Source of the DNA: an uncultured Candidatus Saccharibacteria bacterium
GTDB taxonomy: Bacteria; Patescibacteriota; Minisyncoccia; Phycocordibacterales; Phycocordibacteraceae
DNA length: 37,459 bases
Direction: 5' to 3'
Assembly: GCA_964650475.1 (NCBI GenBank)
Contig: CAZYRK010000005.1
Location: 1-37,459, forward strand
The first letter of the stretch is position 1. Each line of letters starts with the position of its first letter. This document shows, in pieces, positions 7,196-37,437 of this stretch. The position numbers and the translations under genes were made by a program. Under the pieces are notes generated by a model that was not told the origin of the DNA, made no database searches, and saw only the letters and a list, made by a program, of their open reading frames with translations.

Positions 7196-8512
7196 TTAGT
7201 TACTTATTCCCGGAATAGCTGACCTGATAAGTTTCTCCGCGTTCGCCAGAGCTTGTGTAATGGAGGTTCTTCCTACTACGATATCTTTAACCATTCGCGA
7301 AAAAATCTTATCTGTTATTTGCGGAGCCGGCGAGATCCATACACGAGACATGATTGCTAGCGGATACACAACAGCAGATATAGGATTGTTTGGCGGTGTG
7401 GCAAGAAGCGAGCGCAATGCCGGAGCCAGCCCCGTTGCTTTAGCAATAAGCTTTTCGTTTTTAGGTTTTGAGAAAAGTGAGGCTACTTTCAAAGCCCCAG
7501 CAGAATTCCTACTTCCATTTGGTATTGCAAGAGCATAAACATGTGCGTAATCTGTTTTGAATTTCGCTGTAGAAAGCTGTGGAACCGGAGCGATATCAAA
7601 CACTAGATTTGGATTTGCCTCTTTTATAAAAGGAATTTCCGATGAATATCCGAGATACAAGGCGCTATTACCACGAATAAACTCTTGTTGCGAATCCGGC
7701 ATTGTCGTGTTCCATGTGTACGATATTTTTGTAGGGTCTGCGAACTGTGTATAAAACCGCATCACAGCTTCTCCGTGGCGAGACGCTGTTCCAGAGCCTC
7801 CGTTAAGAGACACAACATACTGCCCTTCAGAATTTACAGAAACAATGGGAACACCTGCCTGCAAAAACAGTGTGGACAATATGCCCATGGCGTTATGTAT
7901 ATTGTCGTAAGTTCCAAGCGCAATAAGCGCGCGAGAAACATTTTGAGTATTTGTAACATTTACAACACGCGGAGCCCAACCAGTTAGAGCTTCCCATGTT
8001 ACCGAGGAGACTTCTGCAATTCCAGCTGAAGACAGCATGGGTTTGTTGTAATAAAGAACTAACGGATCTATGGCAATCGGTATCCCGTACACTCCGTTTT
8101 GTTGAAGATAAATAGAACTGGCATCTGAAAAAGTATTCATAAAAGTTCTCTGCGGAATAGCAGAGTACGGTATCGGAATGATTTCACCAGAAAGTCCTGC
8201 CAAATATTCTTGTGAGATTAAAACCACGTCGGGGCTTTTCCCTGTTGCTATAGCTGTTGTCAAATCATCTTCAAAAGTAGCCGGATTTTTATAGACATAG
8301 GACACTTCTTTAAGACTCTGGTTCGACTGAGTCATAATGGAAAGCACTGGCGAAATAGTTGCTTTTGGCAAAATGCCCCAAATAACGACAGTACCGACTG
8401 TTTCTTTTTTTGAGGACGAACCAGAATATGTTGCAAAAACAAAAATACCGATAAGAGCAAACAGAGCAAAAGACCCCATTAACACTGTTTTGAAAACAGA
8501 TAAGTTTTTCAT
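7196..8512 (-). CDS. Extracellular solute-binding protein (carbohydrate ABC SBP family 1-like), membrane anchored
   Basis: 438 aa; N-terminal TM, VVIWG, ATGKSPDV, YGIPIAIDPLVLYYNK, F-RG--A-Y-GY motifs. Confidence 0.85.
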   Translation of the reverse strand: MKNLSVFKTVLMGSFALFALIGIFVFATYSGSSSKKETVGTVVIWGILPKATISPVLSIMTQSNQSLKEVSYVYKNPATFEDDLTTAIATGKSPDVVLISQEYLAGLSGEIIPIPYSAIPQRTFMNTFSDASSIYLQQNGVYGIPIAIDPLVLYYNKPMLSSAGIAEVSSVTWEALTGWAPRVVNVTNTQNVSRALIALGTYDNIHNAMGILSTLFLQAGVPIVSVNSEGQYVVSLNGGSGTASRHGEAVMRFYTQFADPTKISYTWNTTMPDSQQEFIRGNSALYLGYSSEIPFIKEANPNLVFDIAPVPQLSTAKFKTDYAHVYALAIPNGSRNSAGALKVASLFSKPKNEKLIAKATGLAPALRSLLATPPNNPISAVVYPLAIMSRVWISPAPQITDKIFSRMVKDIVVGRTSITQALANAEKLIRSAIPGISN

Positions 8513-9119: not shown

Positions 9120-11588
9120 TTACAAGACAACCATTGAAGCAATAGAATCTCCTGCGCGCATCTTCATAATACGAACACCCTGCGTAGCTCTTTTTAGAGC
9201 AGGAACTTCTATAGCTCCGGTACGAATCACTTGCCCTTTCTTTGAAACAACCACTATTTCCTGTTCGTGTATCTTGTCTATAAGAATCTTCGCTCCTATA
9301 ATCTTTCCAGTTTTTTCAGTAACTTCCGCTGTTTTTATTCCGGAGCCACCACGACCCTGTACTTTGTATCCATTCATCAAAGTACGTTTTCCATAACCCT
9401 TCTCTGTAATAACCAGAAGTGACGCATCTTTTGCATCTGCCGGTATTATTTCTGCTGAAACAACGCGATCGCCTTTTTTAACATTCATACCCTTTACACC
9501 ACCGGCTGTGCGACCCATTTCGCGTACATCTTCAATATCAAATCTTATAGACTGTCCGTTTCTTGTTACAACAGAAACGGTGTCTCCTGTTCCTGCAAGC
9601 GAAGCACATACCAAACGGTCATCACCTTTCAAAGAAATTGCAATTATTCCCGTGCTTCGCACACCGGAAAAACTCTTTGCTGCAACGCGTTTTGTAACGC
9701 CTCCGCTTGTGACAAATACAATCGAATAAGCATCCCATGCAGCGCCCTTTTGCACAGGCAAAATAGAAGTTACCTTTTCATCACCAGCCAAAGGCAAGAA
9801 ATTCATAATACTCTTACCTTTTGTAGCGCGTCTCCCTTCTGGAATCTCATACATTTTAAGAGCGTACGCCTTACCGTAATCTGTAAAGAACAACAGATCA
9901 GCATGAGCAGAAGCTACGAGAAAATGCTTCACAATATCTTCCTCTTTTGTTGCGATATCTACAACCCCAACACCACCGCGTTTTTGGTGTTTGTATTCGT
10001 CTGGGTTGGTGCGCTTCACATAGCCACCTTTCGTTAGCACCAAAACAGACTCCTCGTCTGGAACAAGGTCTTCAACAGAAATATTTTTTACCCCGCCCTT
10101 AACTATTTTCGTACGGCGATTGTCACCATATTTATCACTCACCTCGATAAGCTCTGTTTTTACAACAGCGAGAATATTCTTTTCAGAAGAAAGTATTTTT
10201 TTAAGTTTCTCAATTATCCTCTCGAGTTCTGCCAACTCATCGTCAATCTTCTTGCGCTCAAGACCTGCGAGTGTTTGCAAACGCATCGCAAGTATCGCGG
10301 TAGTCTGGCGTTCGGAAAACTTAAACTTTTTTTGGAGGGCGAGTCCGGCGCTTGGCACATCTGGAGCTTTTTTGATAATCGCAATAACCTCATCGATATG
10401 ATCGAGCGCTTTCGCAAGACCCAGCAAAATATGTTCACGCTCTTGCGATTTACGTAAATCGAACTCTGTACGGCGACGCACGACTTGCTGTCTGTGTGCC
10501 ACAAAGTTTTCAAGCATTCCTTTTAAGGAAAGTGTTTGGGGTACGCCGTCAACCAAAGCGAGCATATTATAATGAAAGGCGCTTTCAAGCTCTGTATGTT
10601 TGTAAATAGCGTTAAGTACAGCCTGTGGAAACGCATTGCTCTTTAGCTCTACAACCACACGAATATCGCTCGTAGATTCATCTCGAAGATCGCGAATCCC
10701 CTCTATCTTCTTTAAACGTACCAAATCTGCGATTCGCGTAATCATATCAGCTTTGTTCACTTGATATGGTATGGAAGTGATAATGATGCTTGTTCCCTTT
10801 TTCTCATCAACAATCTCCGCCTCGCCTCGTACAATCACACCGCCTCTACCATTTATATACGCATGTCGTATATCATCTTGATTAAACGCGACACCTCCCA
10901 ATGGAAAATCAGGTCCTTTAACGAATTGAAGCAAATCTTCTGTGGTTGCACTAGAATTCTCAATGAGGTGCACTGTTGCTGCAACAACCTCGCGCAAGTT
11001 GTGTGGAGGTATCTTTGTAGCCATACCTACAGCTATACCGAGAGTTCCGTTTAGTAACAGATTCGGAAGTGCCGATGGAAGTACTTTCGGTTCTTGGCGC
11101 GTTGCGTCATAGTTCGGGTTCCAGTCCACTGTATCTTTTTCGATATCACGCAAAAGCTCTTCGCCGATACGTGACATTTTTGCCTCGGTGTAACGCATAG
11201 CGGCAGGAGAATCGCCGTCGATAGAACCGAAGTTTCCCTGACCAAGCACCAAAGGATACCTGTACGAAAATTCCTGTGCCATTTTTGCCATCGCGTCATA
11301 AACGGCCGTGTCACCATGTGGGTGATATTTACCAAGCACTTCACCGACGACTGTAGCGGATTTACGAAACTTCGATGTTGGGGCAAGCCCCATGTTTTTC
11401 ATAGCGTACAAAATACGACGATGCACAGGTTTCAAGCCGTCACGCACATCAGGTAACGCACGCCCAGTGATAACAGACATGGCGTAATCTACATACGATA
11501 CGCGCATTTCCGATGTAATACTCTGGTTTATAATGCGAGCATCGCCAAGAGCAGTTGTTTCTTTTTTCTCGTTATTTTGGTCTGCCAT
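9120..11588 (-). CDS. gyrA: DNA gyrase subunit A
   Basis: 822 aa; [29 protein letters not shown] (catalytic Tyr), GyrA-box QKRGGVG, CTD propeller repeats. Confidence 0.98.
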
Positions 11589-14364: not shown

Positions 14365-14413
14365 AAAACAAACCGGGCGCGATGGCATTCTGCCATCGCG
14401 CCCGGTTTGTTTT
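14365..14413. terminator. Bidirectional terminator-like perfect 23-bp hairpin between convergent rpsA and pth
   Basis: AAAACAAACCGGGCGCGATGGCA-TTC-TGCCATCGCGCCCGGTTTGTTTT. Confidence 0.8.
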
Positions 14414-27752: not shown

Positions 27753-27869
27753 ATATTCTTAATAAACCGTTTCGTAGATATACAGAATTGTAACGGTGGC
27801 GGTATAACGCCAATTATTGTATATTGCATAATAGCTTTTGCGATACTTTCGCATAGCCAAAACTAGCTT

Positions 27870-27946
27870 GCGCGGTTAGCTCAGTTGGTTAGAGCGTCCC
27901 CTTGACGTGGGGAAGGTCGGGGATTCGAATTCCTCACCGCGCACCA
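27870..27946 (+). tRNA. tRNA-Val(GAC), CCA encoded; atypical A53-U61 and G37
   Basis: GCGCGGTTAGCTCAGTTGGTTAGAGCG-TCCCC-TTGACGT-GGGGA-AGGTC-GGGGA-TTCGAAT-TCCTC-ACCGCGC-ACCA. Confidence 0.94.
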
Positions 27947-27969
27947 AATACATAAATAAATATTTCATC

Positions 27970-28734
27970 ATGTCTGCAAAACATACAAAAAAAGAGAAAA
28001 TCTATATATACGGTAAGCACGCCCTCGAAGAGGCACTTGCTTATGCTCCGCACTCGGTAAGAAAAGTTTTTATCGATCCGGCGGTTAAAGATCAAGAGCT
28101 CCGAAAACTTGTAGAAGAAACCAAAATACCTTTCGCTCCTCTTAAAGCAAACGGAGCAAGTCGTGTCTCTAAAGAAGCGGTGCATCAAGGAATTATAGGA
28201 ACACTAAACCCTTCTGCCCTGCTCACCCCTTTCGATAAATTCGTAAAGACGCTCGACATAGACAAAAAACCTTCTCTCGTACTTTTAGGAGAGATACAAG
28301 ACCCGCACAATGTTGGAGCAATTATCCGCTCGGCAGCTGCGTTTGGAATCTCCGGCGTACTAATCCCCGAGCACAATCAAGCTGGAATAACCGGTGCTGT
28401 TGTAAAAGCCTCTGCGGGAATGGTGTTTCGCGTTCCGCTTGTATCTATCGGCAATATAAACAACACAATCCGCACATTAAAAGAGCAGGGTTTTTGGGTG
28501 TACGGTCTGGAAATGGAAGGTAAAAATATTCTTAGCGAAGAAAGTTTCGAAACTCCGACACTGTTTATTATGGGAAATGAAGCAACCGGTGTACGCCAAA
28601 AAACACTCGAGCTTTGCGATGTTGCTCTTTCAATAAAAATGCACCCTCGGTGCGAGTCGCTAAACGTAGCGGCATCTGCAGCGATAGTTTTCTCTGCATG
28701 GAGTGCAAAGCATCCGAAAGCATTAACAACATGA
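27970..28734 (+). CDS. rlmB: SpoU/TrmH-family RNA methyltransferase (23S rRNA Gm2251 RlmB-like)
   Basis: Start moved to 27970; IYGKHALEEAL, HQGI, IQDPHNVGAIIRSA, KASAG, MGNEATG, ESLNVAASAAI. Confidence 0.88.
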   Translation: MSAKHTKKEKIYIYGKHALEEALAYAPHSVRKVFIDPAVKDQELRKLVEETKIPFAPLKANGASRVSKEAVHQGIIGTLNPSALLTPFDKFVKTLDIDKKPSLVLLGEIQDPHNVGAIIRSAAAFGISGVLIPEHNQAGITGAVVKASAGMVFRVPLVSIGNINNTIRTLKEQGFWVYGLEMEGKNILSEESFETPTLFIMGNEATGVRQKTLELCDVALSIKMHPRCESLNVAASAAIVFSAWSAKHPKALTT

Positions 28735-29630
28735 GCACATCAAAACGTATCGATATCACAGCAAATGCGTGGAGTGGATACGAGCTTTTAGACTCCGGCG
28801 AAAACATGAAGCTGGAGCGTTTTGGCGAAGTGGTCGTGGCACGTCCGGAAACACAGGCGCTTTGGTTAAAAAAACAACCCGAGCTTTGGAGCAAAGCAGA
28901 CGCATCTTTTTCATGGGAGAAAAAGAAAGGAGCGTGGAAAATTGCAAAAGATGTTCCTGAAAAATGGCAGGTGCCGTGGAAAAAGATGCATCTTAATGCA
29001 CGACTAACCTCGTTTAAACACACCGGAATATTTCCGGAGCAAGCACCAAACTGGGAATGGATAGAAGCCCGCACTAAAGCTCTAAAAAATCCCAAAGTTC
29101 TAAACCTTTTCGGTTATACCGGCGGGGCAAGTATCGTGGCGGCACTCGCCGGAGCAGATGTGACGCACGTAGACGCATCCAAACAAAGCCTCACATGGGC
29201 GCACAAAAACGCAGACTCTTCTGGCATAGACGACTCCTTTGAAGACGGCAGTGTCCGTTATATTCTCGATGATGCACTTCGTTTTGCAAAGCGCGAAGCG
29301 CGCCGTGGCACAAGCTACGACGGCATAATACTCGACCCGCCGGCTTTTGGTCGTGGCGCCAAAGGAGAGGTTTGGCATATAGAAAAAGATCTGCCAATCC
29401 TCATGGAGATATTGCAAACCCTCCTATCTGAAACAGCAGGATGTTTTTTTCTGCTAAACGGATATGCCTCCGGATACTCGCCACGCACTTTTTTGCAAAT
29501 AACAGAAGATATTTTCCCCAAAGAAAATATTACATACGGCGAAATATCCATTGCACAGCGCGACGATGAGGAGCGCGTTGTTCCTGCCGGTATATATGTA
29601 CGCTTTGCACGAGGTACAGATACGTCGTAA
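28731..29630 (+). CDS. Class I SAM-dependent methyltransferase (RlmI/RlmK-like family)
   Basis: Start moved to 28731 (ATGA overlap); YELLDSGENMKLERFG, FKHTGIFPEQAPNW, VLNLFGYTGG, HVDAS, ILDPPAFGRG. Confidence 0.88.
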   Translation: MSTSKRIDITANAWSGYELLDSGENMKLERFGEVVVARPETQALWLKKQPELWSKADASFSWEKKKGAWKIAKDVPEKWQVPWKKMHLNARLTSFKHTGIFPEQAPNWEWIEARTKALKNPKVLNLFGYTGGASIVAALAGADVTHVDASKQSLTWAHKNADSSGIDDSFEDGSVRYILDDALRFAKREARRGTSYDGIILDPPAFGRGAKGEVWHIEKDLPILMEILQTLLSETAGCFFLLNGYASGYSPRTFLQITEDIFPKENITYGEISIAQRDDEERVVPAGIYVRFARGTDTS

Positions 29631-29639
29631 AGTAAACAT

Positions 29640-30509
29640 ATGCCAAAACCACGCACAATAATTTTGTATCACGGCGGATGCCCCGATGGTTTCGGAGGAG
29701 CTTATTCCGCATGGAAAAAGTTTGGAGACGATGCCGAGTACATTCCTCTGTACCGCTCGCACCCTGTTCCAGAGGGGTTAGACGGATGCAATCTTTATTT
29801 TATCGATTTCTGCTACCCGAAAGAAATAATGGAAACTTTTAGAAAGACCGCGCAGTCTGTCATCGTACTCGACCACCACGAAGGAGCCAGCGAAACAGCC
29901 CTGTCTTTCGAGGGGGTATTCGACCAAAACCATTCCGGAGCTGTTATTGCTTGGAACTATTTTCACAAAGAAAAGCCCGTACCTAAACTACTCTCGTATA
30001 TAGAGGACGGAGATCTTTACCGCTTCGCGCTTCCCCACTCCCGAGAAATACTTTCTTCCATATATAGCGAGCCTTGGGAATCTTTTGAATACTTCGATTC
30101 TACAATCGAAAAAATGAAAGACCCTTCCAAGCTTGAGCAGATGGCAACAATCGGGGCGCACTATATAAAGTATCGCCAAAGTATAATAAACTCTCACGTT
30201 AAAAAAGCCGAGTTGGTACTTTTTGAAGGCTACGAGTGCTATCTCGCAAGCTCCACAGGAGAGTTTACAAGCGATGTGGGGCATGCGCTCGCAGAGAAAA
30301 AACCGCCGATTGCGCTTATAGTAAGCGCAGACGCTTTAGGTTTAAGAATATCTCTTCGAAGCGATAGTAGCGTAGATGTTTCAAAGCTTGCGCAAATATA
30401 CGGAGGAAACGGTCACCCCGCTGCCTCAGGTATCCGAATCCCGTTCGGGGCACCTATCCCATGGAAAATTATTCCGAAAGATGAAAAAGATGAAGTTACT
30501 GGCGATTGA
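29640..30509 (+). CDS. DHH/DHHA1-family phosphoesterase
   Basis: 289 aa; YHGGCPDG, FIDF, LDHH, SGAVIAW, D-DL, SLRS, GGNGHPAASG. Confidence 0.85.
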   Translation: MPKPRTIILYHGGCPDGFGGAYSAWKKFGDDAEYIPLYRSHPVPEGLDGCNLYFIDFCYPKEIMETFRKTAQSVIVLDHHEGASETALSFEGVFDQNHSGAVIAWNYFHKEKPVPKLLSYIEDGDLYRFALPHSREILSSIYSEPWESFEYFDSTIEKMKDPSKLEQMATIGAHYIKYRQSIINSHVKKAELVLFEGYECYLASSTGEFTSDVGHALAEKKPPIALIVSADALGLRISLRSDSSVDVSKLAQIYGGNGHPAASGIRIPFGAPIPWKIIPKDEKDEVTGD

Positions 30510-31776
30510 AACCTCGTGCGATGAAACCGCAATAGCTATAGTGGAAGCTGTCGGGGACGAAACTTCTGCCACCTTTCAAATACAAGGAGACGCCTTACTT
30601 TCGCAAATAGAATTGCATCGACCATACGGAGGTGTTTTCCCAAACCTCGCAAAGCGTGAACATGCAAAAAATATAATTCCACTCACCCGCGCAGCGCTTG
30701 AAGAGTCTGGTCTGCTACACCAAAATGCAAACGCCGTATCTACTGAAAAGAGAAACCGCATCGCTTCTCTTTTTACACACGACCAAGATCTTGCTGAGCA
30801 ATTTTTCGATTTTGTAACAGAAGTCGAACCGCCAGAAATAGATGCTATCGCCGTTACGGCATGTCCGGGGCTTGAACCGGCGTTGTGGGTTGGTGTAAAC
30901 ACCGCAAAAGCTTTTTCCATTTTTTGGGACAAACCTCTCGTAGCCGTTAATCATATGGAGGGGCACATACTTTCCGCACTGGCAAAAACCAAAAACAATG
31001 GCTCCACCGAAACACCGATGCTTGAGATTTCAAATGTCGAGCTACCTGTTCTCGCGCTTCTTATTTCCGGTGGTCATACCGAGCTTACAGTAATGCGCAA
31101 ATGGCTTTCATATGAACTTATCGGAGAAACGCGCGACGATGCCGTCGGCGAAGCCTTCGACAAAGTCGCGCGTTTGCTCGGACTTCCATACCCTGGAGGA
31201 CCAGAAATATCAAAACTCGCGGAAGATGTTCGTGCATCCACGGAGGAAAAAGAGGCTGGTGACTTACCTGCAAAAACTTCGGATAAGCAAGACCGCCGAG
31301 AACAGGAAAAAGATGCTTTCATGTGCAAACTTCCCCGCCCGATGATACAAGACCAATCATGCGACTTCTCATTCGCTGGGCTCAAAACTGCCACAAGATA
31401 TTTAATACAAGACCTTGGCGAAATAAACGACTCTACAAAATCGCAAATTGCACTCGAGTTTGAAAATGCCGTAACAGATGTCCTTCTTTCAAAAACACTG
31501 CGCGCACTTAAAGAAACCGGAGCAAAAACACTCGTGCTTGGTGGAGGAGTTTCCGCAAACAAACATATCCGCGAGGTTTTCACAAAAGAAATCGCGCACG
31601 CACATCCGGAAGTGTCTCTTAAAATACCTCAAGCATCTTTAACAACCGACAACGCCATTATGATTGCGCTCGCCGGTTTCTATCGTGCTTCGCGCCACGA
31701 ATACGCAGATACAGAATCTCTCACACCGAGCGGTTCGAAGTCTCTTGCTAAAAAACCGACTAACACCGCCAGCTAA
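30490..31776 (+). CDS. tsaD: tRNA threonylcarbamoyladenosine transferase TsaD, with lineage-specific insertions
   Basis: Start moved to 30490 (MKLLAIETSCDET); HMEGH, LLISGGHT, DDAVGEAFDKVAR, YPGGP, FSFAGLKT, GGVSAN, TDNAIMIA. Confidence 0.95.
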   Translation: MKLLAIETSCDETAIAIVEAVGDETSATFQIQGDALLSQIELHRPYGGVFPNLAKREHAKNIIPLTRAALEESGLLHQNANAVSTEKRNRIASLFTHDQDLAEQFFDFVTEVEPPEIDAIAVTACPGLEPALWVGVNTAKAFSIFWDKPLVAVNHMEGHILSALAKTKNNGSTETPMLEISNVELPVLALLISGGHTELTVMRKWLSYELIGETRDDAVGEAFDKVARLLGLPYPGGPEISKLAEDVRASTEEKEAGDLPAKTSDKQDRREQEKDAFMCKLPRPMIQDQSCDFSFAGLKTATRYLIQDLGEINDSTKSQIALEFENAVTDVLLSKTLRALKETGAKTLVLGGGVSANKHIREVFTKEIAHAHPEVSLKIPQASLTTDNAIMIALAGFYRASRHEYADTESLTPSGSKSLAKKPTNTAS

Positions 31777-32060
31777 AACTACGCGATACGTTGCGATGCA
31801 TTTGGGAAGGTCTAACCTTCCCAAAATGTTAGACGATCTATCATGATGAAAAACCACGCGCTACATTACAAGAGGTAGGGTGCTCCAGGCCGCTAGGCCG
31901 AGCCTTACCCTACGCTCTTGCAACGTACCATATGCTTTTTAGTTGTGGAAAAGTTGGGAAGGTTAGACCTTCCCAACTAAAAACGTAGTATGGGAGTTCG
32001 TATCTCGATAACAACTCGTAAGAACCCGCGGTGTTTTTTACAAAACACCGCGGGTTCTTA
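31776..32060. repeat. Mosaic palindromic repeat cluster after tsaD (modules A and B plus two hairpins)
   Basis: B ACGCGATACGTTGC 31781-94; A TTTGGGAAGG-TCTAA-CCTTCCCAAA 31801-25; hairpin 31869-31920; inverted B 31920-29; inverted A 31952-78; 19-bp perfect hairpin 32019-60. Confidence 0.85.
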
Positions 32061-32141
32061 TCTTGCGCTCCAAGCAAAAAAGTGGCATGCTTCAAAAAGA
32101 TTGTATCCCATAAAAGCTGTTTAAAATAAAGGAGAGTTGTT

Positions 32142-32603
32142 ATGAACGCACCGGAAATATTGGAAAGACTTAGTGGGCGAGTTCGTTGTATCACTATTGG
32201 TGAAAATATCTGGATAGGCGGTACTTCACTTTGGTATTATGAAAAAGAAGTTGGACACCTAATCTGCCTTAATCTGGACGGGTCGCTGAACGAGGGCGTG
32301 ACCAACCGATTGAAAAAAATTGATGGCAATGTTTATTGCATCACACAAACAGGTAACAATGTATGGGTTGGCGGAGACTTCAGTCACTATGGAGGAAAAG
32401 AAGTTGGGCGTCTCGTTTGCCTCAACATGGACGGGTCGTTGAATGAAAGCGTGATGAATAAATTGGAAGGGTTTGATGACTGCGTTTATTGCATCACAAA
32501 AATTAACAACAAAGTGCTGGTAAGCGGGGACTTCATTATGTACGGTACAAAAAAAGTCGGTCGCTACATCTGGCTTGACTTAGATGGTTCGCTAGTGAAA
32601 TAG
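32142..32603 (+). CDS. Small protein of three tandem ~49-aa beta-propeller blade repeats (delta-60 / DUF5122-like)
   Basis: 153 aa; three repeats of V-CIT....W(I/V)GG....KEVG-L-CLN-DGSL; SD AAGGAG at 32129-34. Confidence 0.75.
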   Translation: MNAPEILERLSGRVRCITIGENIWIGGTSLWYYEKEVGHLICLNLDGSLNEGVTNRLKKIDGNVYCITQTGNNVWVGGDFSHYGGKEVGRLVCLNMDGSLNESVMNKLEGFDDCVYCITKINNKVLVSGDFIMYGTKKVGRYIWLDLDGSLVK

Positions 32604-32624
32604 CGAACCATTGAAACAGCTTAT

Positions 32625-32657
32625 AAAAGCCCCTTATTAATTAAATAAGGGGCTTTT
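32625..32657 (+). terminator. Intrinsic terminator after the propeller gene
   Basis: AAAAGCCCCTTATT-AATTA-AATAAGGGGCTTTT followed by CTTTTT. Confidence 0.75.
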
Positions 32658-32739
32658 CTTTTTTGTAATGTTTATAATTATGATTTAAATTGGTGTTTCT
32701 AAAAACCCCTTAATTTGCTACACTATTTATAATAAACTT

Positions 32740-34938
32740 ATGGACGACGCCTTTCGAAAACCATATAAATCTGTCGATACTGAGCCTAAAATATATGAGC
32801 TGTGGGAAAAGAGCGGTATGTTTAACCCCGACAATTTACCGGACGCAAAAAACCGCGAACCTTTTTCAATAGTGCTTCCACCGCCAAACGTGACCGGTCG
32901 CCTGCATATGGGTCATGCACTTATCCTTTCTCTGGAAGACATAATCATTCGTTTCAAACGCATGCGCGGGTACCGAACACTCTGGCTCCCCGGCACCGAC
33001 CACGCGGCAATCGCAACGCAGTCTGTCGTCGAGAAGAGAATTCAAAAAGAAGAAAAGCTAAATCGCCACGACCTTGGGCGCGATGAGCTACTAAAACGTA
33101 TAGAAAAATTCGCAAACGAAAGTCACGACACCATCATCTCTCAGATAAAAACAATGGGAGCATCTGTCGACTGGTCACGTGAAGTTTTCACTCTCGACCA
33201 AACACGTAGTTTGGCGGTGCGCACCATGTTTAAAAAAATGTACGATGCCGGTCTTATTTACAGAAGCAACCGTATTGTAAACTGGGATCCAAAAGGACAA
33301 ACAACAATCTCTGATGACGAAATTGTTTATAAAGAACGCTCCACCACTCTTTATACTTTCCGATACAGCAAAGACTTCCCTATCCCCGTAGCGACCACGC
33401 GCCCCGAAACCAAAGTGGGCGATGTCGCTGTTGCTGTGCACCCAGACGATACCCGCTACAAAGACTTTATCGGAAAAGAATACAATCTTACTTTTTGCGA
33501 TGTACCAATTCATATTAAAGTCGTTGCAGATTATGCTGTCGACATGGAATTTGGCACCGGAGCGGTGGGTGTTACACCTGCGCATAGCCAAACAGACTGG
33601 GATATTGCAGAGCGCCACAATTTACCGCGAAAACAAATCATAAATGAATACGCAAAAATGACCGTATCGGGTCGTCTTGAAAACAAAAAAGTAGCAGAGG
33701 CGCGCGAAATGGTAGTAGCATGGCTTCGCGAAGAAAACTTGCTCGAAGAAGAACAAGAAATGACACACAACGTCTCTACCGCAGAGCGCACAGGAGGAAC
33801 AATCGAACCGCTACCAAAACTACAATGGTTTATCGACGTAAACAAACAGTTCACAATCCCTAACTCAAAAATTTCAGGTATCGAATCCGGAAGCGAAACG
33901 ACACTGAAAGAAATGACACGTAAAGCCGTAGAGAGTGGTGACATAAAAATTCTTCCGGAACATTTTGTAAAAACGTATTTCCACTGGATTGATAACCTGC
34001 GCCCGTGGTGCATAAGCCGTCAGATATGGTACGGGCACCGTATCCCCGTATGGTATCGCGGTGAAGAAATATATGTTGGTATTGAAGAACCTTCCGAAGA
34101 CGGCTGGAAACAAGACCCCGACACCCTCGACACATGGTTCTCTTCCGGTCTATGGACATTTTCCACCATGGGTTGGCCTGAGGCATGGGATATGGAAAAA
34201 GGAGTGGCAAAAGAAGGCAGTGACCTCGCCGTTTGGCGTCCTACAGATATTCTCGAAACAGGACACGATATTTTATTTTTCTGGGTTGCACGCATGGTGC
34301 TTATGACAGGCTTCGCGCTTGGCGAAATTCCTTTCAAAACAGTGTATCTAAACGGTCTTGTGCGCGATGCCAAAGGTCGAAAAATGTCGAAATCTCTCGG
34401 AAACAATCTCGATCCGCTAGACGTAACCGAAAAATTCGGTACCGACGCAACACGTATGGCACTTGTGGTTGGCAACGCACCTGGCATGGACACGCGTATA
34501 AGCGAGGAGAAAATTAAAGGCTACAAACATTTTGCAAACAAGCTGTGGAATATCTCACGTTTTATTTTGGAACGTACCGATGAAATAGACCTAGCGGAAA
34601 AGCTCTCCGAGACTGATGCCAAGATTTATGGCGAGCTTTCAAAAATTGTTCGCGAAGTTTCAGAAGACATAGATGCATACCGCATACACATAGCCGCAGA
34701 AAAACTTTATCACTTTACATGGCACAGACTTGCCGATGAAATACTCGAGGAATCGAAACCGATACTTTTGGATGGTGATGAAGTCGCGCGCGCTTCGCGC
34801 GCGCGACTTCTGCGCGACACCCTAGACACTATCCTAAAACTCCTACACCCTTTTATGCCTTTTATAACCGAAGAAATATGGCAACGTATCCCCAACCAAT
34901 CTGAAAAAATGCTTATGACCGCCACGTGGCCGAGTTAA
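32740..34938 (+). CDS. valS: Valine--tRNA ligase lacking the C-terminal coiled-coil arm
   Basis: 732 aa; PPPNVTG-LHMGH, GTDHAAIATQ, ATTRPET, WCISRQIWYGHRIP, DTWFSS, KMSKSLGN; ends at TATWPS. Confidence 0.97.
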   Translation: MDDAFRKPYKSVDTEPKIYELWEKSGMFNPDNLPDAKNREPFSIVLPPPNVTGRLHMGHALILSLEDIIIRFKRMRGYRTLWLPGTDHAAIATQSVVEKRIQKEEKLNRHDLGRDELLKRIEKFANESHDTIISQIKTMGASVDWSREVFTLDQTRSLAVRTMFKKMYDAGLIYRSNRIVNWDPKGQTTISDDEIVYKERSTTLYTFRYSKDFPIPVATTRPETKVGDVAVAVHPDDTRYKDFIGKEYNLTFCDVPIHIKVVADYAVDMEFGTGAVGVTPAHSQTDWDIAERHNLPRKQIINEYAKMTVSGRLENKKVAEAREMVVAWLREENLLEEEQEMTHNVSTAERTGGTIEPLPKLQWFIDVNKQFTIPNSKISGIESGSETTLKEMTRKAVESGDIKILPEHFVKTYFHWIDNLRPWCISRQIWYGHRIPVWYRGEEIYVGIEEPSEDGWKQDPDTLDTWFSSGLWTFSTMGWPEAWDMEKGVAKEGSDLAVWRPTDILETGHDILFFWVARMVLMTGFALGEIPFKTVYLNGLVRDAKGRKMSKSLGNNLDPLDVTEKFGTDATRMALVVGNAPGMDTRISEEKIKGYKHFANKLWNISRFILERTDEIDLAEKLSETDAKIYGELSKIVREVSEDIDAYRIHIAAEKLYHFTWHRLADEILEESKPILLDGDEVARASRARLLRDTLDTILKLLHPFMPFITEEIWQRIPNQSEKMLMTATWPS

Positions 34939-34947
34939 AATAAAAAC

Positions 34948-35652
34948 GTGACTATCTCTTCAATCGCCACAATAATAGTAAGCGGAATACTTCCGCCTCT
35001 TTTATGGCTTTATTTTTTACTGAAAGAAGACTCTCGAAACCCCGAACCGAAGCGTATTATCGCTCTGGCATTTTTTGCAGGCATGCTTTGCGTTCCTATT
35101 GCGATTCCTATTGAACAGTACACATACGCGCACCTTAGCAAAACCCTCTTAGTTGTTATTTCGTGGGCAACAATAGAAGAAACTGTAAAATATGCGCTCG
35201 CCGCCCTTTTAATACTCTGGCGACCCGCGGTAGACGAACCGCTCGATTATGTGATTTACCTTATTACCGTAGCTCTCGGTTTTGCAGCAATGGAAAACAT
35301 GCTTTTTCTTTTTTCACCGGTTACAGCCGGACACCTTACAAGCTGGTTTATAATAGGTGACCTACGCTTCCTCGGAGCAAACATTTTACACGTTGTCGCA
35401 TCTGCAACGATAGGTTTTGCGTTTGCTTTTTCGTACGCAAAAAAACCTGTAGTACGAATGCTGTACGCATCGGTCGGCGTTATCCTCGCCATATCATTGC
35501 ACGCTGGGTTTAATCTACTTATAATGAGTCAAGGTGGATCGCGCGCGTTCGAAGCACTCTTATTGGTATGGAGTAGCCTCATTGTTGTGCTCGCACTGTT
35601 TGAAGTTGTAAAATATCGCACCTACAGAAATTTACCAGCCCATATTCGCTAA
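34948..35652 (+). CDS. prsW: PrsW-family intramembrane glutamic metalloprotease
   Basis: 234 aa, multi-TM; PEP, IEETVK, LGFAAMEN, LHVVASA, LHAGFN. Confidence 0.9.
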   Translation: MTISSIATIIVSGILPPLLWLYFLLKEDSRNPEPKRIIALAFFAGMLCVPIAIPIEQYTYAHLSKTLLVVISWATIEETVKYALAALLILWRPAVDEPLDYVIYLITVALGFAAMENMLFLFSPVTAGHLTSWFIIGDLRFLGANILHVVASATIGFAFAFSYAKKPVVRMLYASVGVILAISLHAGFNLLIMSQGGSRAFEALLLVWSSLIVVLALFEVVKYRTYRNLPAHIR

Positions 35653-35721
35653 CCATTAAAGAACTCATTTCAAAAGACTCACAAAAAGCTCTGATTTGAT
35701 TTCCAGTACAATTTCCATTCT

Positions 35722-36192
35722 ATGTTTAAAAAACGCTCCATTTTCTCACGGCTATCAGGCACTGTGCCAAATGACGAAAAGTTCGACTCGTTTGAAGACG
35801 AGTTTCCAGAACCGCAAACAAATAACGACAAGATAACTGAGGAGCTTGAGGAAGAAGCAGACGCAGGACAGCTTCCGACAGACGTGTTTCAAACACCGGA
35901 CGATATAATAATCCATGCTTTTGTAGCCGGAGTGCGTCCGGACGAGCTCAATGTTTCCATAAGTCGCGACATTGTTGTCATCGAAGGAACGCGTGCGGAG
36001 ATACAACAGGTTTCCGAGGCAGATTACTTCACGCGCGAGCTTTTCTGGGGCTCTTTCACACGAACAATAATGCTCCCGCAAGAAGTAGACGTGGACAACG
36101 CCGTTGCACACTCAAAAGACGGATTAATGACGATTACACTCCCAAAACTCGACCGAACAAAACAAACAAAACTACGCGTTAAGTCCGGCTAA
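35722..36192 (+). CDS. Small heat-shock protein (Hsp20/alpha-crystallin)
   Basis: 156 aa; DVFQTPDDIII, GV-PDELNV, RELFWGSF-R-I-LP, KDGLMTITLPK. Confidence 0.92.
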   Translation: MFKKRSIFSRLSGTVPNDEKFDSFEDEFPEPQTNNDKITEELEEEADAGQLPTDVFQTPDDIIIHAFVAGVRPDELNVSISRDIVVIEGTRAEIQQVSEADYFTRELFWGSFTRTIMLPQEVDVDNAVAHSKDGLMTITLPKLDRTKQTKLRVKSG

Positions 36193-36207
36193 TTTCCACA
36201 CCGATAC

Positions 36208-36256
36208 CAAAAACCAAAACACCAAACCGCGTAGCGGTTTGGTGTTTTGGTTTTTG
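36208..36256 (+). terminator. Perfect 23-bp hairpin after hsp20
   Basis: CAAAAACCAAAACACCAAACCGC-GTA-GCGGTTTGGTGTTTTGGTTTTTG. Confidence 0.8.
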
Positions 36257-36297
36257 CCACATCCTCACCAGTATCCTCACTCTGTACATAAAATATT

Positions 36298-36650
36298 TTG
36301 GGAAGGTCTAACCTTCCCAACTTTCCAAACTAAAAAGTACGCGGTACGTTTGCGATGGATAGGGAAAGACCCGGGGTGAGCGGTCTCGAGCGTCTCTGCC
36401 GACACTTAGTGTCGGCAGAAAGTAATGTAGCTAATGTAGCGCGGGGCTTTGCGGACACTTAGTGTCGGCAGAGAGAGAAAACCACGCGATACGTTGCAAG
36501 AGCGTGAGGAAAATCTAGTGGCAAGCTCCACTACGGGGCTTTGCGGACACTAAGTGTCCGCAAAAGACACTTAGACACTTTGCGGACACTTAGTGTCCGC
36601 AAAAAGAGGCCCGCTAGAATTAACAGCTAAAAACCTAAGCGGTACGTTGC
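36298..36650. repeat. Mosaic palindromic repeat cluster downstream of tRNA-Phe (modules A, B, C)
   Basis: A 36298-36320; B 36339-53, 36484-97, 36637-50; C core GACACT(T/A)AGTGTC at 36401, 36454, 36546, 36585. Confidence 0.9.
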
Positions 36651-36670
36651 GGTTGCAATTTTAAACAAAA

Positions 36671-36747
36671 TGGTGCCTGGGGTCGGATTTGAACCGACGA
36701 CCCTTCGCTCTTCAAGCGAACGCTCTAACCAACTGAGCTACCCAGGC
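36671..36747 (-). tRNA. tRNA-Phe(GAA), CCA encoded, G37
   Basis: GCCTGGGTAGCTCAGTTGGTTAGAGCG-TTCGC-TTGAAGA-GCGAA-GGGTC-GTCGGTTCAAATCCGAC-CCCAGGC-ACCA. Confidence 0.97.
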
Positions 36748-36833
36748 AGATAACAAAAATATAACATATCCTTATGTGTTTTGCCTCCCACGAACACTCC
36801 AGAACTCTACTATTACCCGCACCTAGCGATACT

Positions 36834-37175
36834 TTAAGGTGTAGAGGTAACCTGCTGTACCGCCTGTGTTGCGGTGTGCGAAAGATTCTTTGCTGTATCA
36901 AGAGCGTGCTGTATAGAGCTAACAGACGGTAAACCAAGAGCATTTAAGATGTGATTTCCACCAGAACCGCCTGCGGGAATAATGCTCGCCACAATCGGAG
37001 CCAAATATGTAAAATAAAGATACGTAGGAATTCCGAACATGATAATCCAAAAAAGTATCTTACCGACAAAACCAAAACGCGCGGAGCGGCGCATCGAGTG
37101 AAGCATTTTGTTGTTTTCTTTGGAAACAGAAATACTCTCCTCCAACAAATCTCTCATATCTTTATCTCCTTCCAT
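36834..37175 (-). CDS. Hypothetical single-pass membrane protein (start may be the second Met at 37157)
   Basis: 113 aa; N-terminal LLEE-I-VSKENNKMLHSMRR, one TM; TG-G-TAAAAT upstream; AAGGAG before the second Met. Confidence 0.7.
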   Translation of the reverse strand: MEGDKDMRDLLEESISVSKENNKMLHSMRRSARFGFVGKILFWIIMFGIPTYLYFTYLAPIVASIIPAGGSGGNHILNALGLPSVSSIQHALDTAKNLSHTATQAVQQVTSTP

Positions 37176-37230
37176 ATCCTCCGTATTTTACCACATAGAA
37201 ACCCGCACATGTTTTATAACTCCACACTGT

Positions 37231-37420
37231 TTGCGGTACGTTGCAAACAGGGCCGACAGTTGGGAAGGTCTAACCTCTTCCCAACTCTGCCGACACTTAG
37301 TGTCGGCAGAAAGTAATGTAGCTAATGTAGCGCGGGGTTTTGCGGACACTTAGTGTCCGCAAAACCCACTTAGACACTTTGCGGACACTTAGTGTCCGCA
37401 AAAAACTTAGTGTCCGCAAA
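37231..37420. repeat. Mosaic palindromic repeat cluster downstream of the edge tRNA (modules B, A, C)
   Basis: B 37231-44; A with 2-nt insertion 37258-86; C core at 37292, 37345, 37384 plus a half-site at 37405-20; 37285-37357 matches 36394-36466 at 72/73. Confidence 0.9.
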
Positions 37421-37437
37421 AAAACACATTTTGAATG

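Follow-up and report, generated by a model that had tools for sequence, protein, structure and literature searches.

The described systems closest to the repeats reported here are small palindromic sequences. The repetitive extragenic palindromic (REP) sequences of the Enterobacteriaceae and Pseudomonas, with the bacterial interspersed mosaic elements (BIMEs) and REP-doublet hairpins (REPINs) that they form, are short imperfect palindromes found in tens of copies, in clusters of mixed orientation with recurrent linkers; the hairpin unit is ~100 nt long, one strand is apparently read, and copies persist at orthologous positions with their pairing kept. Rickettsia palindromic elements (RPEs), also ~100 nt in length, occupy intergenic DNA and also sit in frame, in both orientations, within housekeeping genes, and no transposase is encoded by them or known for them. 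In the BOX elements of Streptococcus pneumoniae (boxA-boxB(n)-boxC), outer modules pair around variable inner modules at tens or more of intergenic sites, while the palindrome-associated transposable elements (PATEs), which are miniature inverted-repeat transposable elements (MITEs) derived from IS200/IS605, are non-autonomous copies built, like other HUH substrates, on a strand-specific, single-stranded hairpin. The genomes of the Candidate Phyla Radiation (CPR; Patescibacteria) are regarded as extremely streamlined; our literature search found no description of dispersed repeat families in CPR genomes and no paper that contains the core sequence reported below or that links REPs, MITEs, or palindromic elements to the CPR. 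Here we analyze a 37,459-nt stretch (positions 1 to 37,459 of contig CAZYRK010000005.1; hereafter the window) from a metagenome-assembled genome (MAG) of a patescibacterium, in which an imperfect hairpin of 97 nt lies downstream of tsaD in a mosaic of other palindromic repeats. This hairpin belongs to an apparently undescribed family whose apical core is shared by many CPR classes.

When the sequences flanking copies of a short palindrome, module A, were compared in this lineage, they gave the composite A - CTTATCCACAGCTAAAAA - B - GATGGATAGGGTAAGAC..GGCCGAGCGGCC..CCCTGTCCATTG - D (TAATGTAGCGCGnGGTTTT) - ..ACCAGCTAACATT - A, in which B and D are the two arms of one hairpin of ~96 to 97 nt. A preliminary description of the window had recognized a mosaic of two modules, A and B. 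This parse was incomplete, since B is only half of the 97-nt hairpin, arm D had been missed, and a third set of palindromes, C, had been missed or under-described. The window hairpin folds with -50.8 kcal/mol on the minus strand (z = -7.0), versus -35.1 kcal/mol on the plus strand. Eight canonical copies from the lineage share a 23-pair consensus with double compensatory changes in 6 pairs and G.U pairs invariant at fixed columns. Across the repeats, including module A, stems covary even within one genome (GCGGACAC/GTGTCCGC versus GCCGACAC/GTGTCGGC, and TTGTGAAGG/CCTTCACAA versus TTGGGAAGG/CCTTCCCAA), which argues for a constraint on hairpins rather than on a specific duplex sequence. The arms of the 97-nt hairpin were not found as short palindromes on their own, and solo arms are truncations. 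For searches, we used two covariance models, R1, which represents the window lineage, and R2, which was built from 60 copies of the wider family, none of them from the window lineage. The mosaic that holds the intact copy comprises the following features.

31767-31798, plus strand: linker remnant and solo 5' arm (module B) CAGCTAAAACTACGCGATACGTTGC, then GATG, the start of the inner stem; the B arm itself is at 31775-31794
31802-31824, plus strand: module A hairpin with a 9-bp stem and a TCTAA loop; depth ~483 versus 43x for unique sequence
31847-31943, minus strand: 97-nt imperfect hairpin, intact copy and member of the CPR-wide family (R1, 99 bits; R2, 43.5 bits)
~31907-31940, minus strand: 5' arm (module B) of the 97-nt hairpin
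31881-31906, minus strand: apical core of the 97-nt hairpin, AAGGCTCGGCCTAGCGGCCTGGAGCA
~31850-31880, minus strand: 3' arm (D) of the 97-nt hairpin
31954-31976, minus strand: module A hairpin, inverted relative to 31802-31824, with the TCTAA loop on the minus strand
31977-31996, plus strand: degenerate CTAAAAA and B-like remnant CTAAAAACGTAGTATGGGAG, a weak, putative feature read by eye
32020-32059, no strand assigned: perfect palindrome of 18 bp around a TTAC loop, which resembles a terminator and falls outside the repeat families; depth approximately single copy

The intact copy is antisense to both neighboring genes. Together with the linker CTTTTCCACAACTAAAAA (31936-31953), the module A copy at 31954-31976 forms the 5' end of the A-linker-hairpin composite, and CAGCTAAAA plus B at 31767-31798 agrees with the linker-B consensus CCACAGCTAAAAA-ACGCGGTACGTTGC of three other contigs of the lineage (L103, L089, and L110). 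The stop codon of tsaD (TAA, 31774-31776) falls within the linker motif CAGCTAAAA, and a repeat element seems to have replaced the native 3' end of this gene. The 18-bp palindrome lies downstream of the mosaic, which is therefore found between the stop codon of tsaD and the palindrome.

R1 unexpectedly matched loci in 8 relatives, all of them within or at the end of valS, where the stems differ and the apex is the same. This apex of 26 to 33 nt reads GUAAGACUYGGSCKARCGSCCYGGAGCG. A scan for the core (AGACTYGGSCKARCGSCCYGGAGCG) in one genome per GTDB species returned at least 120 stretches, relative to ~0.07 expected by our own estimate. Among the matches listed, the hosts were members of many patescibacterial classes and three bifidobacteria (Bifidobacterium hapali, B. 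aerophilum, and B. sp. ESL0763), a taxonomic range that is a lower bound; the CPR groups were Saccharibacteria (including Nanosyncoccus), Paceibacteria, Kaiser-, Adler-, Jorgensen-, Nomura-, Peri-, and Peregrinibacteria, and Minisyncoccia. A complete chromosome of 805 kb carries at least 6 copies. In the complete chromosome OY970216.1, 6 copies are in mixed orientation within 3 kb. R2 matched the window at 31847-31940 on the minus strand (43.5 bits, E ~1e-10) and also matched copies in L093 (51 bits) and L110 (57 bits); the membership of the window hairpin in the wide family was thus tested and upheld. No core was found in INPHARED phages, PLSDB plasmids, or IMG/VR. Each Bifidobacterium species had one canonical copy among the matches listed (L125, 273-297; L130, 7626-7650; L195, 32-56), and the B. 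hapali copy lies just upstream of a gene that, from its open reading frame (ORF), resembles an RluA-like pseudouridine synthase gene. The association of CPR epibionts with Actinobacteria points to horizontal transfer, possibly between an epibiont and its actinobacterial host.

The family combines a variable outer stem with a near-invariant apex. The outer stem of ~17 to 30 bp is lineage or copy specific and is followed by closing pairs G:C and U.G. The core then has an internal loop (AAGA/AGC), invariant C:G and U.G pairs, single-nucleotide bulges, a conserved G.A/A.G mismatch, and a covarying 4-bp stem (GGCC/GGCC in 84 copies and GGGC/GCCC in 36) capped by a KAGC loop. In the 60-sequence alignment, 85% of the stem cells were paired, compared to 57% after shuffling and at most 50% with slid partners; cells with double changes numbered 514 versus 191 in shuffles, and none of 500 shuffles reached the observed value. 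Stem mismatches of the G.T type outnumbered A.C mismatches 156:57 (P ~1e-11, with scoring symmetric between the two), which implies that one particular strand is the folded strand. This excess was present in intergenic copies (98:34), in copies sense to an ORF (24:9), and in copies antisense to one (34:14). Since the antisense copies share the bias, the folded strand is not simply that of the host mRNA. The arms of copies in one complete genome have their inner ~24 nt in common, while the outermost 4 to 8 bp are copy specific yet complementary. No conserved promoter or terminator was detected in the alignment flanks.

The preliminary description had proposed that a structured single strand is recognized, based on a fixed loop polarity of module A. 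A strand-specific signal does exist, but it resides in the B..D hairpin and not in A. After arm D, the loop of A reads TCTAA in L089, L092, L099, and L110 but TTAGA at 31802 and in L093; the polarity of A relative to the hairpin is inconstant, so the polarity argument fails for A. The more general proposal of a mobile or recombinogenic repeat family read as a structured single strand was reasonable, though it had been attached to the wrong module, and its attribution to an HUH or RAYT (REP-associated tyrosine transposase) enzyme is unproven.

The hairpin also lies inside genes. Of 124 copies, 66 had no long open frame running through them, 18 touched ORF ends, and 40 lay inside long ORFs (18 sense and 22 antisense). 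Four stop-free frames are used, which encode KTWPSGPER, RLGLAARSA, ALRGASPSL, and RSGPLGQVL. The host genes are housekeeping genes and include valS, cysS, tgt, and queA, as well as rarA-like and prmC-like genes recognized by sequence reading; the first four are conspicuously tRNA related. The queA site is unoccupied in L136 and L127, whereas in L122 it holds ~31 additional amino acids that correspond to the whole ~93-nt palindrome. A larger, nested insert occupies the queA site in L163, between recognizable hairpin-arm peptides, and L165 carries a tandem duplication of the hairpin 5' arm and core (1807-1915). Both point to nested and rearranged copies in the wider family.

In valS, the hairpin occupies at least 3 different sites across CPR lineages.

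Site 1, ~230 aa into the protein: L178 (ValRS, 939 aa)
Site 2, linker before the anticodon-binding domain: L012, L025, L023, L019, and L003
Site 3, stop codon: L021, L036, L022, L010, and L031

The overlap at site 3 is similar to that of the repeat linker with the tsaD stop codon in the window. The linker at site 2 is typically 47 aa when empty and 57 to 65 aa in the 5 hairpin-bearing species, with a decayed remnant in L032, although this length comparison is ambiguous. In 1.24 Mb of sequence around tsaD from 80 relatives, all 12 R2 matches lay in the 3' part of valS or over its stop codon, and all were sense to valS; they comprise the linker site, the stop codon site, and a truncated match in L023. 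At two orthologous valS sites, the core is 87 to 92% identical between species, whereas the arms, although still paired, have an identity of ~50%; the value for a nearby coding segment of high conservation is 81%. A conserved peptide was rejected as the source of the core conservation, as copies in genes use four frames and both orientations and other copies are intergenic. For the gene-internal copies, we likewise rejected an origin of the copy-specific stems in an inverted duplication of target sequence or in a pre-existing terminator hairpin that received the core, because the whole ~93-nt palindrome in queA is extra relative to the empty orthologues and the stems in Saccharibacteria are diverged but related.

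The hairpin shares the window with the two shorter families. Module A is TTGGGAAGG-TCTAA-CCTTCCCAA, with a 9-bp stem and a TCTAA loop; its 19-mer has 7 strand matches in the window at up to 3 mismatches, compared to 0.00 expected from shuffles. The positions previously assigned to A held up at 31802-31824 (plus), 31954-31976 (minus), 36298-36320 (plus), and 37260-37284 (plus, with a CT insertion). Module B (GCGRTACGTTGC, up to 1 mismatch) is also real, with 5 matches versus 0.29 expected from shuffles and weaker copies at 36333-36352 and 31912-31931 (minus). An A+B unit had been reported to recur, and 31950-31976 (minus) is indeed 100% complementary to 36298-36324; the sharing of TACGTTGCAAGAGCGT between the minus-strand mosaic and the mosaic at 36 kb could be reproduced as well. 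Arm D (GTAATGTAGCGCG), the 3' arm of the 97-nt hairpin, occurs at 31850-31869 (minus), 36431, and 37322. The C palindromes (TTTGCGGACACTTAGTGTCCGCAAA, with the stem variant TCTGCCGACACTTAGTGTCGGCAGA) number 8 and fall within 36394-36605 and 37285-37422. All modules of the window lie in three clusters in its last 6 kb. The second and third clusters contain the following features.

36298-36320, plus strand: module A hairpin; depth 1156-1520x versus 46-54x
36329-36453, plus strand: rearranged hairpin unit with linker and B, inner stem GATGGATAGGG, and degenerate core AAAGACCCGGGGTGAGCGGTCTCGAGCG (R1, 32.7 bits, E = 1.8e-7)
36448-36650, plus strand: further mosaic with C palindromes at 36448-36473, 36540-36564, and 36579-36603; adjoins tRNA-Phe (36671-36747, minus strand)
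36478-36497, plus strand: solo B arm, with decayed remains to 36540 that are absent from strain L111
36620-36650, plus strand: linker and solo B, with the B arm at 36631-36650
37221-37422, plus strand: third mosaic (R1, 24.6 bits), which adjoins a minus-strand tRNA-Arg that is cut by the window end
37231-37244, plus strand: B arm of the third mosaic
37260-37284, plus strand: module A of the third mosaic, with a window-specific 2-nt CT insertion
37286-37310, 37338-37363, 37378-37402, and half-unit 37405-37422, plus strand: C palindromes of the third mosaic
37316-37337, plus strand: arm D of the third mosaic

In the unit at 36329-36453, the 3' inner stem has given way to a C palindrome (36395-36419) and there is a partial duplication of arm D; the R2 scan gave no match at this position. 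Longer units hold 1 to 3 C palindromes between arms B and D (36329-36453 and L099/L106) or lack some of their parts; the units at 36329-36453 and 37221-37344 are examples in the window. The solo B arms at 31775-31794, 36478-36497, and 36631-36650 are truncations. No RPE-style copy inside an ORF was seen in the window itself.

The mosaics are dispersed well beyond this contig. When contigs from sequencing runs were mapped onto the region, unique sequence had a depth of 43 to 54x, A-containing bins reached 480 to 1520x, C-containing bins reached up to 2100 to 2670x, and dozens of differing flanks ("loose ends") were found at repeat depth. Relative to single-copy depth, this suggests ~10 to 28 copies of A and ~50 copies of C, which are rough values given that they derive from assembler contig word depths to which related strains may contribute. 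An exact scan for the A 23-mer in public metagenome contigs, which may mix strains and sister species, found 57 copies at ~54 distinct sites on 33 contigs. The earlier view of a BIME-like, dispersed, multicopy mosaic rather than a local duplication is therefore borne out by depths 10 to 50x that of unique sequence, by the many flanks, and by these A sites; copies thus extend beyond the loci first noted. The A stems include the compensated variants TTGTGAAGG..CCTTCACAA and TTAGGAAGG..CCTTCCTAA, and A copies are often paired, 39 to 52 nt apart, in inverted or direct arrangement. Since 41 of the 54 A sites have no B or D neighbor, A is a family of its own. Only 2 of the 57 A copies lie in long open frames, both of them borderline cases. 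Exact module A had no match in the set of one genome per GTDB species, in which the window lineage, or its version of A, is unrepresented.

The patterns of A, B, and C were absent from the 80 tsaD loci of relatives, with the exception of C-like palindromes in L014 (60% TsaD identity). These (GTGGACACTTAGTGTCCAC; 7505-7530 and 11060-11140) lie after hsp20, and a further one lies within the tsaD coding sequence; module C may represent an older and wider family that is able to sit in genes. Clusters of A variants with compensated stems (TTGTGAAGG..CCTTCACAA) at 2439-2590 of L083 and 2175-2260 of L094 may mark a different sub-lineage or a hotspot. The L083 cluster adjoins a two-gene pair that resembles an AbiE-type toxin-antitoxin system by sequence reading, with an NYN-like ORF further upstream.

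Comparison between strains, which the preliminary description had also suggested, revealed polymorphism. L111 is ~97% identical to the window over 36541-37364 and lacks 37348-37404 (57 nt of C units), ~33 nt at 36505-36540, and the CT in module A; tRNA-Arg is present in it. L093 is 99.6% identical over 5 kb, and 5 of its 16 differences fall inside the 97-nt hairpin; among them is a patch, also seen in run contigs, that brings the B arm back to the consensus. Mosaics lie beside tRNA genes at ~9 of ~30 loci, for which the scarcity of intergenic space may account.

The G+C content is 43%, and metagenome runs that contain the region include hydrothermal-vent runs and others. Relatives of the window TsaD come from MAGs of Paceibacteria/Kaiserbacteria-type Patescibacteria, with identities of at most 63%; the labels of several MAGs ("uncultured Candidatus Saccharibacteria") are generic. 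The gene order is an S-adenosylmethionine (SAM)-methyltransferase-like gene, a gene for a DHHA1-domain protein, tsaD, a small DUF5122 ORF, valS, prsW, hsp20, tRNA-Phe, a 113-aa ORF, and tRNA-Arg. The ORF calls are mechanical: the tsaD ORF was called from 30376 (466 aa), which overlaps the upstream gene (30376-30480), while gene callers on public contigs start it at 30481 (431 aa). The tsaD-valS gap of ~960 nt (31777-32739) holds the mosaic, the terminator-like palindrome, and the 153-aa DUF5122 ORF (32142-32603). In the relatives L012 and L014, valS directly follows tsaD with a gap of ~30 to 45 nt, and the ~960-nt stretch looks like a lineage-specific insertion. Other long perfect palindromes, with arms of 18 to 24 bp and loops of 3 to 4 nt, follow genes at 322-372, 14365-14413, 32020-32059, and 36208-36256; they probably act as bidirectional terminators, of a type characteristic of this genome, and lie outside the repeat families. 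A Logan contig from a metagenome run is an exact copy of 27793-36322 and ends right at module A. Short-read assemblies break exactly at module A (L001/L002 end at 36322, as do run contigs) and in the C arrays, and these repeats are a practical cause of the fragmentation of this MAG.

Compared to the described systems, the repeats combine properties of several. Modules A and C form clustered extragenic palindrome mosaics of alternating orientation like those of REPs and BIMEs, and the long hairpin resembles a REPIN in its size, apparent strand, and persistence. However, the GT(A/G)G foot tetranucleotide of REPs is absent, as the flanks of the 57 A copies are variable, the feet of C are TTTGCGG/TCTGCCG, and the GUAAGA of the long hairpin is apical. 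In addition, REPs are extragenic, whereas 40 of 124 members of this family lie inside long ORFs; the unit here is one palindrome with a conserved asymmetric apical core, with no REP doublet; REPs are species specific, whereas this core is common to the whole superphylum; and no RAYT was found by a search with a narrow profile. The CPR-wide family matches RPEs in its in-frame insertion in both orientations and in its intergenic copies. Compared by description only, RPE copies share their whole sequence and are limited to Rickettsia and relatives, whereas here only the apical core is common to lineages and the stems are lineage or copy specific with compensatory changes. The C palindromes between arms B and D (36329-36453 and L099/L106) recall the inner modules of BOX, although sequence and host are unrelated and BOX elements are not known inside genes and lack a deeply conserved core. 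Unlike PATEs and other HUH hairpins, the repeats have no recognizable distinct left and right ends with guide sequences, no TnpA(Y1) or TnpB was found nearby, and conservation is at the apex of the hairpin and not at the foot. Finally, the repeats do not resemble intrinsic terminators, in that A is followed by CTT../AAT.., the long hairpin is followed by variable sequence, and the intact copy is antisense to tsaD.

We consider it about an even call that the hairpin is a REPIN- or RPE-like non-autonomous palindromic element that is recognized as a single strand and moved by a trans-acting enzyme. We place it with these elements because of its dispersal, its gain and loss of modules, its truncated and nested copies, its insertion into genes in any open frame and either orientation, its filled and empty sites, and its lack of transcription signals; multicopy dispersal, structure, covariation, strand asymmetry, in-frame insertion, filled and empty sites, and orthologous persistence were all observed. 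We infer that copies move by way of a single-stranded intermediate and that an enzyme of the presumed kind exists. At least 3 families of small non-autonomous palindromes would then have built up in what little noncoding space a streamlined Paceibacteria (CPR) genome has. The apical core of the ~95-nt hairpin, with its 4-bp stem, KAGC loop, two invariant U.G pairs, and purine-rich internal loop, would be the functional recognition site, read with fixed polarity on a single strand, most likely single-stranded DNA exposed during replication or repair. An enzyme encoded elsewhere would copy or move the hairpin in trans and give rise to a REPIN- or RPE-like population. Lineage-specific stems would drift with their arms still complementary, since a copy must be able to fold in order to spread or to be kept. 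In the window lineage, one stem variant (arms B and D) would have been amplified recently alongside the unrelated short hairpins A and C, and recombination or gene conversion among copies would produce the truncated, nested, and strain-variable mosaics.

Several observations weigh against this interpretation. The mobilizing enzyme was not found. Specifically, no RAYT-like or Y1-like ORF was detected in 2.32 Mb of six-frame ORFs from the window, 33 lineage contigs, and ~200 CPR loci (best E = 0.37), although the phmmer search with E. coli RayT and the hidden Markov model of 120 close enterobacterial RAYTs form a narrow profile of limited sensitivity. There was also no enrichment of nucleases, transposases, or reverse transcriptases in the 8-kb tiles that hold the 124 copies, where only housekeeping families recur. 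Neither target-site duplication nor precise excision or insertion between near-identical strains was seen for the hairpin, and the copy-specific but complementary outermost 4 to 8 bp do not follow from this interpretation. The core at orthologous sites is conserved like a strongly constrained coding segment, and the 12 copies at valS in the tsaD loci are sense without exception; both fit a host-selected function better than pure selfishness. Moreover, the purine-rich internal loop and invariant U.G pairs resemble motifs of RNA-protein interaction more than they do a typical HUH DNA hairpin. With a probability that we judge rather low, the ~95-nt hairpin could be an undescribed, superphylum-wide nucleic acid module, present also in some Bifidobacterium, that selection maintains at single sites, among them sites in essential genes such as valS, and whose single strand is read by a conserved host factor. 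It would then be either a domesticated element that serves the cell or an RNA-like module for recognition that functions in either DNA orientation, and not merely selfish.

The near-invariant core at orthologous sites, the RNA-like architecture, and the sense orientation in valS are the reasons why we give substantial weight to readings based on RNA or host function. A functional structured RNA, whether a small RNA or a cis-acting mRNA element whose core is bound by a conserved RNA-binding protein or RNase and whose copies are selected by the host, would explain the G.U excess on one strand, the invariant U.G pairs and covarying 4-bp core stem, the G.A/A.G mismatch and AAGA/AGC internal loop, the core that stays 87 to 92% conserved at orthologous valS sites while stems drift with compensation, and the 12 of 12 copies beside or inside valS that are sense to it. 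We nevertheless find it doubtful, since copies in ORFs are antisense (22) about as frequently as sense (18) and the antisense group retains the G.T bias, the flanks of the hairpin hold no conserved promoter or terminator, essential proteins are interrupted by it in frame, the intact copy of the window runs antisense to the gene on either side, and Rfam has no match. With Rfam 15 at gathering thresholds, the window and 13 canonical CPR/Bifidobacterium loci yielded only tRNAs, the mosaic regions at permissive thresholds yielded only sub-threshold miRNA-like hairpin noise, and the best score for L188 was 23.6 bits relative to a gathering score of 40.5.

Ordinary host cis elements on duplex DNA or in transcripts, such as terminators, operators of dimeric regulators (especially for the C palindromes, GACACTTAGTGTC), or nucleoid protein sites, whose repetition would reflect the number of regulated loci, would suit the palindromic symmetry, the location of the mosaics after genes and next to tRNA genes, and the C-like palindromes after hsp20 in L014. 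This explanation is improbable, however, because neither A nor the long hairpin is followed by a T-run and every gene is already provided with a long perfect terminator palindrome, stem covariation is seen within one genome, copy number and arrangement differ between strains, copies insert within ORFs, and duplex binding could not produce the strand asymmetry. Spread in the manner of short interspersed nuclear elements (SINEs), in which a reverse transcriptase of the group II intron, retron, or diversity-generating retroelement (DGR) type would recognize the core in RNA and the cDNA would be inserted, is in our estimation quite improbable. Such reverse transcriptases are common in the CPR, the folded strand is fixed, the core has RNA-like noncanonical features, and the inserted unit is the whole palindrome; against this, no reverse transcriptase family is enriched near the copies, and the hairpin has no promoter of its own and no poly(A) or other 3' signature or target-site duplication that we could see. 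Chance similarity or a duplication confined to the contig would fit the restriction of the modules to three clusters within the last 6 kb of the window. Its probability is practically negligible, given shuffle expectations of 0.00 and 0.29, the repeat depth of 10 to 50x, the ~54 A sites on 33 other contigs, and a CPR-wide family with at least 120 core stretches, which together refute it.

These results describe a CPR lineage in which tens of copies of three nested hairpin families break short-read assemblies. They also reveal a near-invariant structured core that spans many CPR classes and Bifidobacterium, lies in frame in aminoacyl-tRNA synthetase and tRNA modification genes, and persists with compensatory changes in its stems. 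The covariance models provide an annotation tool and a marker for gene-internal insertions that inflate the "lineage-specific inserts" of CPR proteins. If the enzyme or factor that recognizes the core were found, it would represent either a new mobilization system or a new conserved nucleic acid-protein interaction in this uncultivated superphylum.

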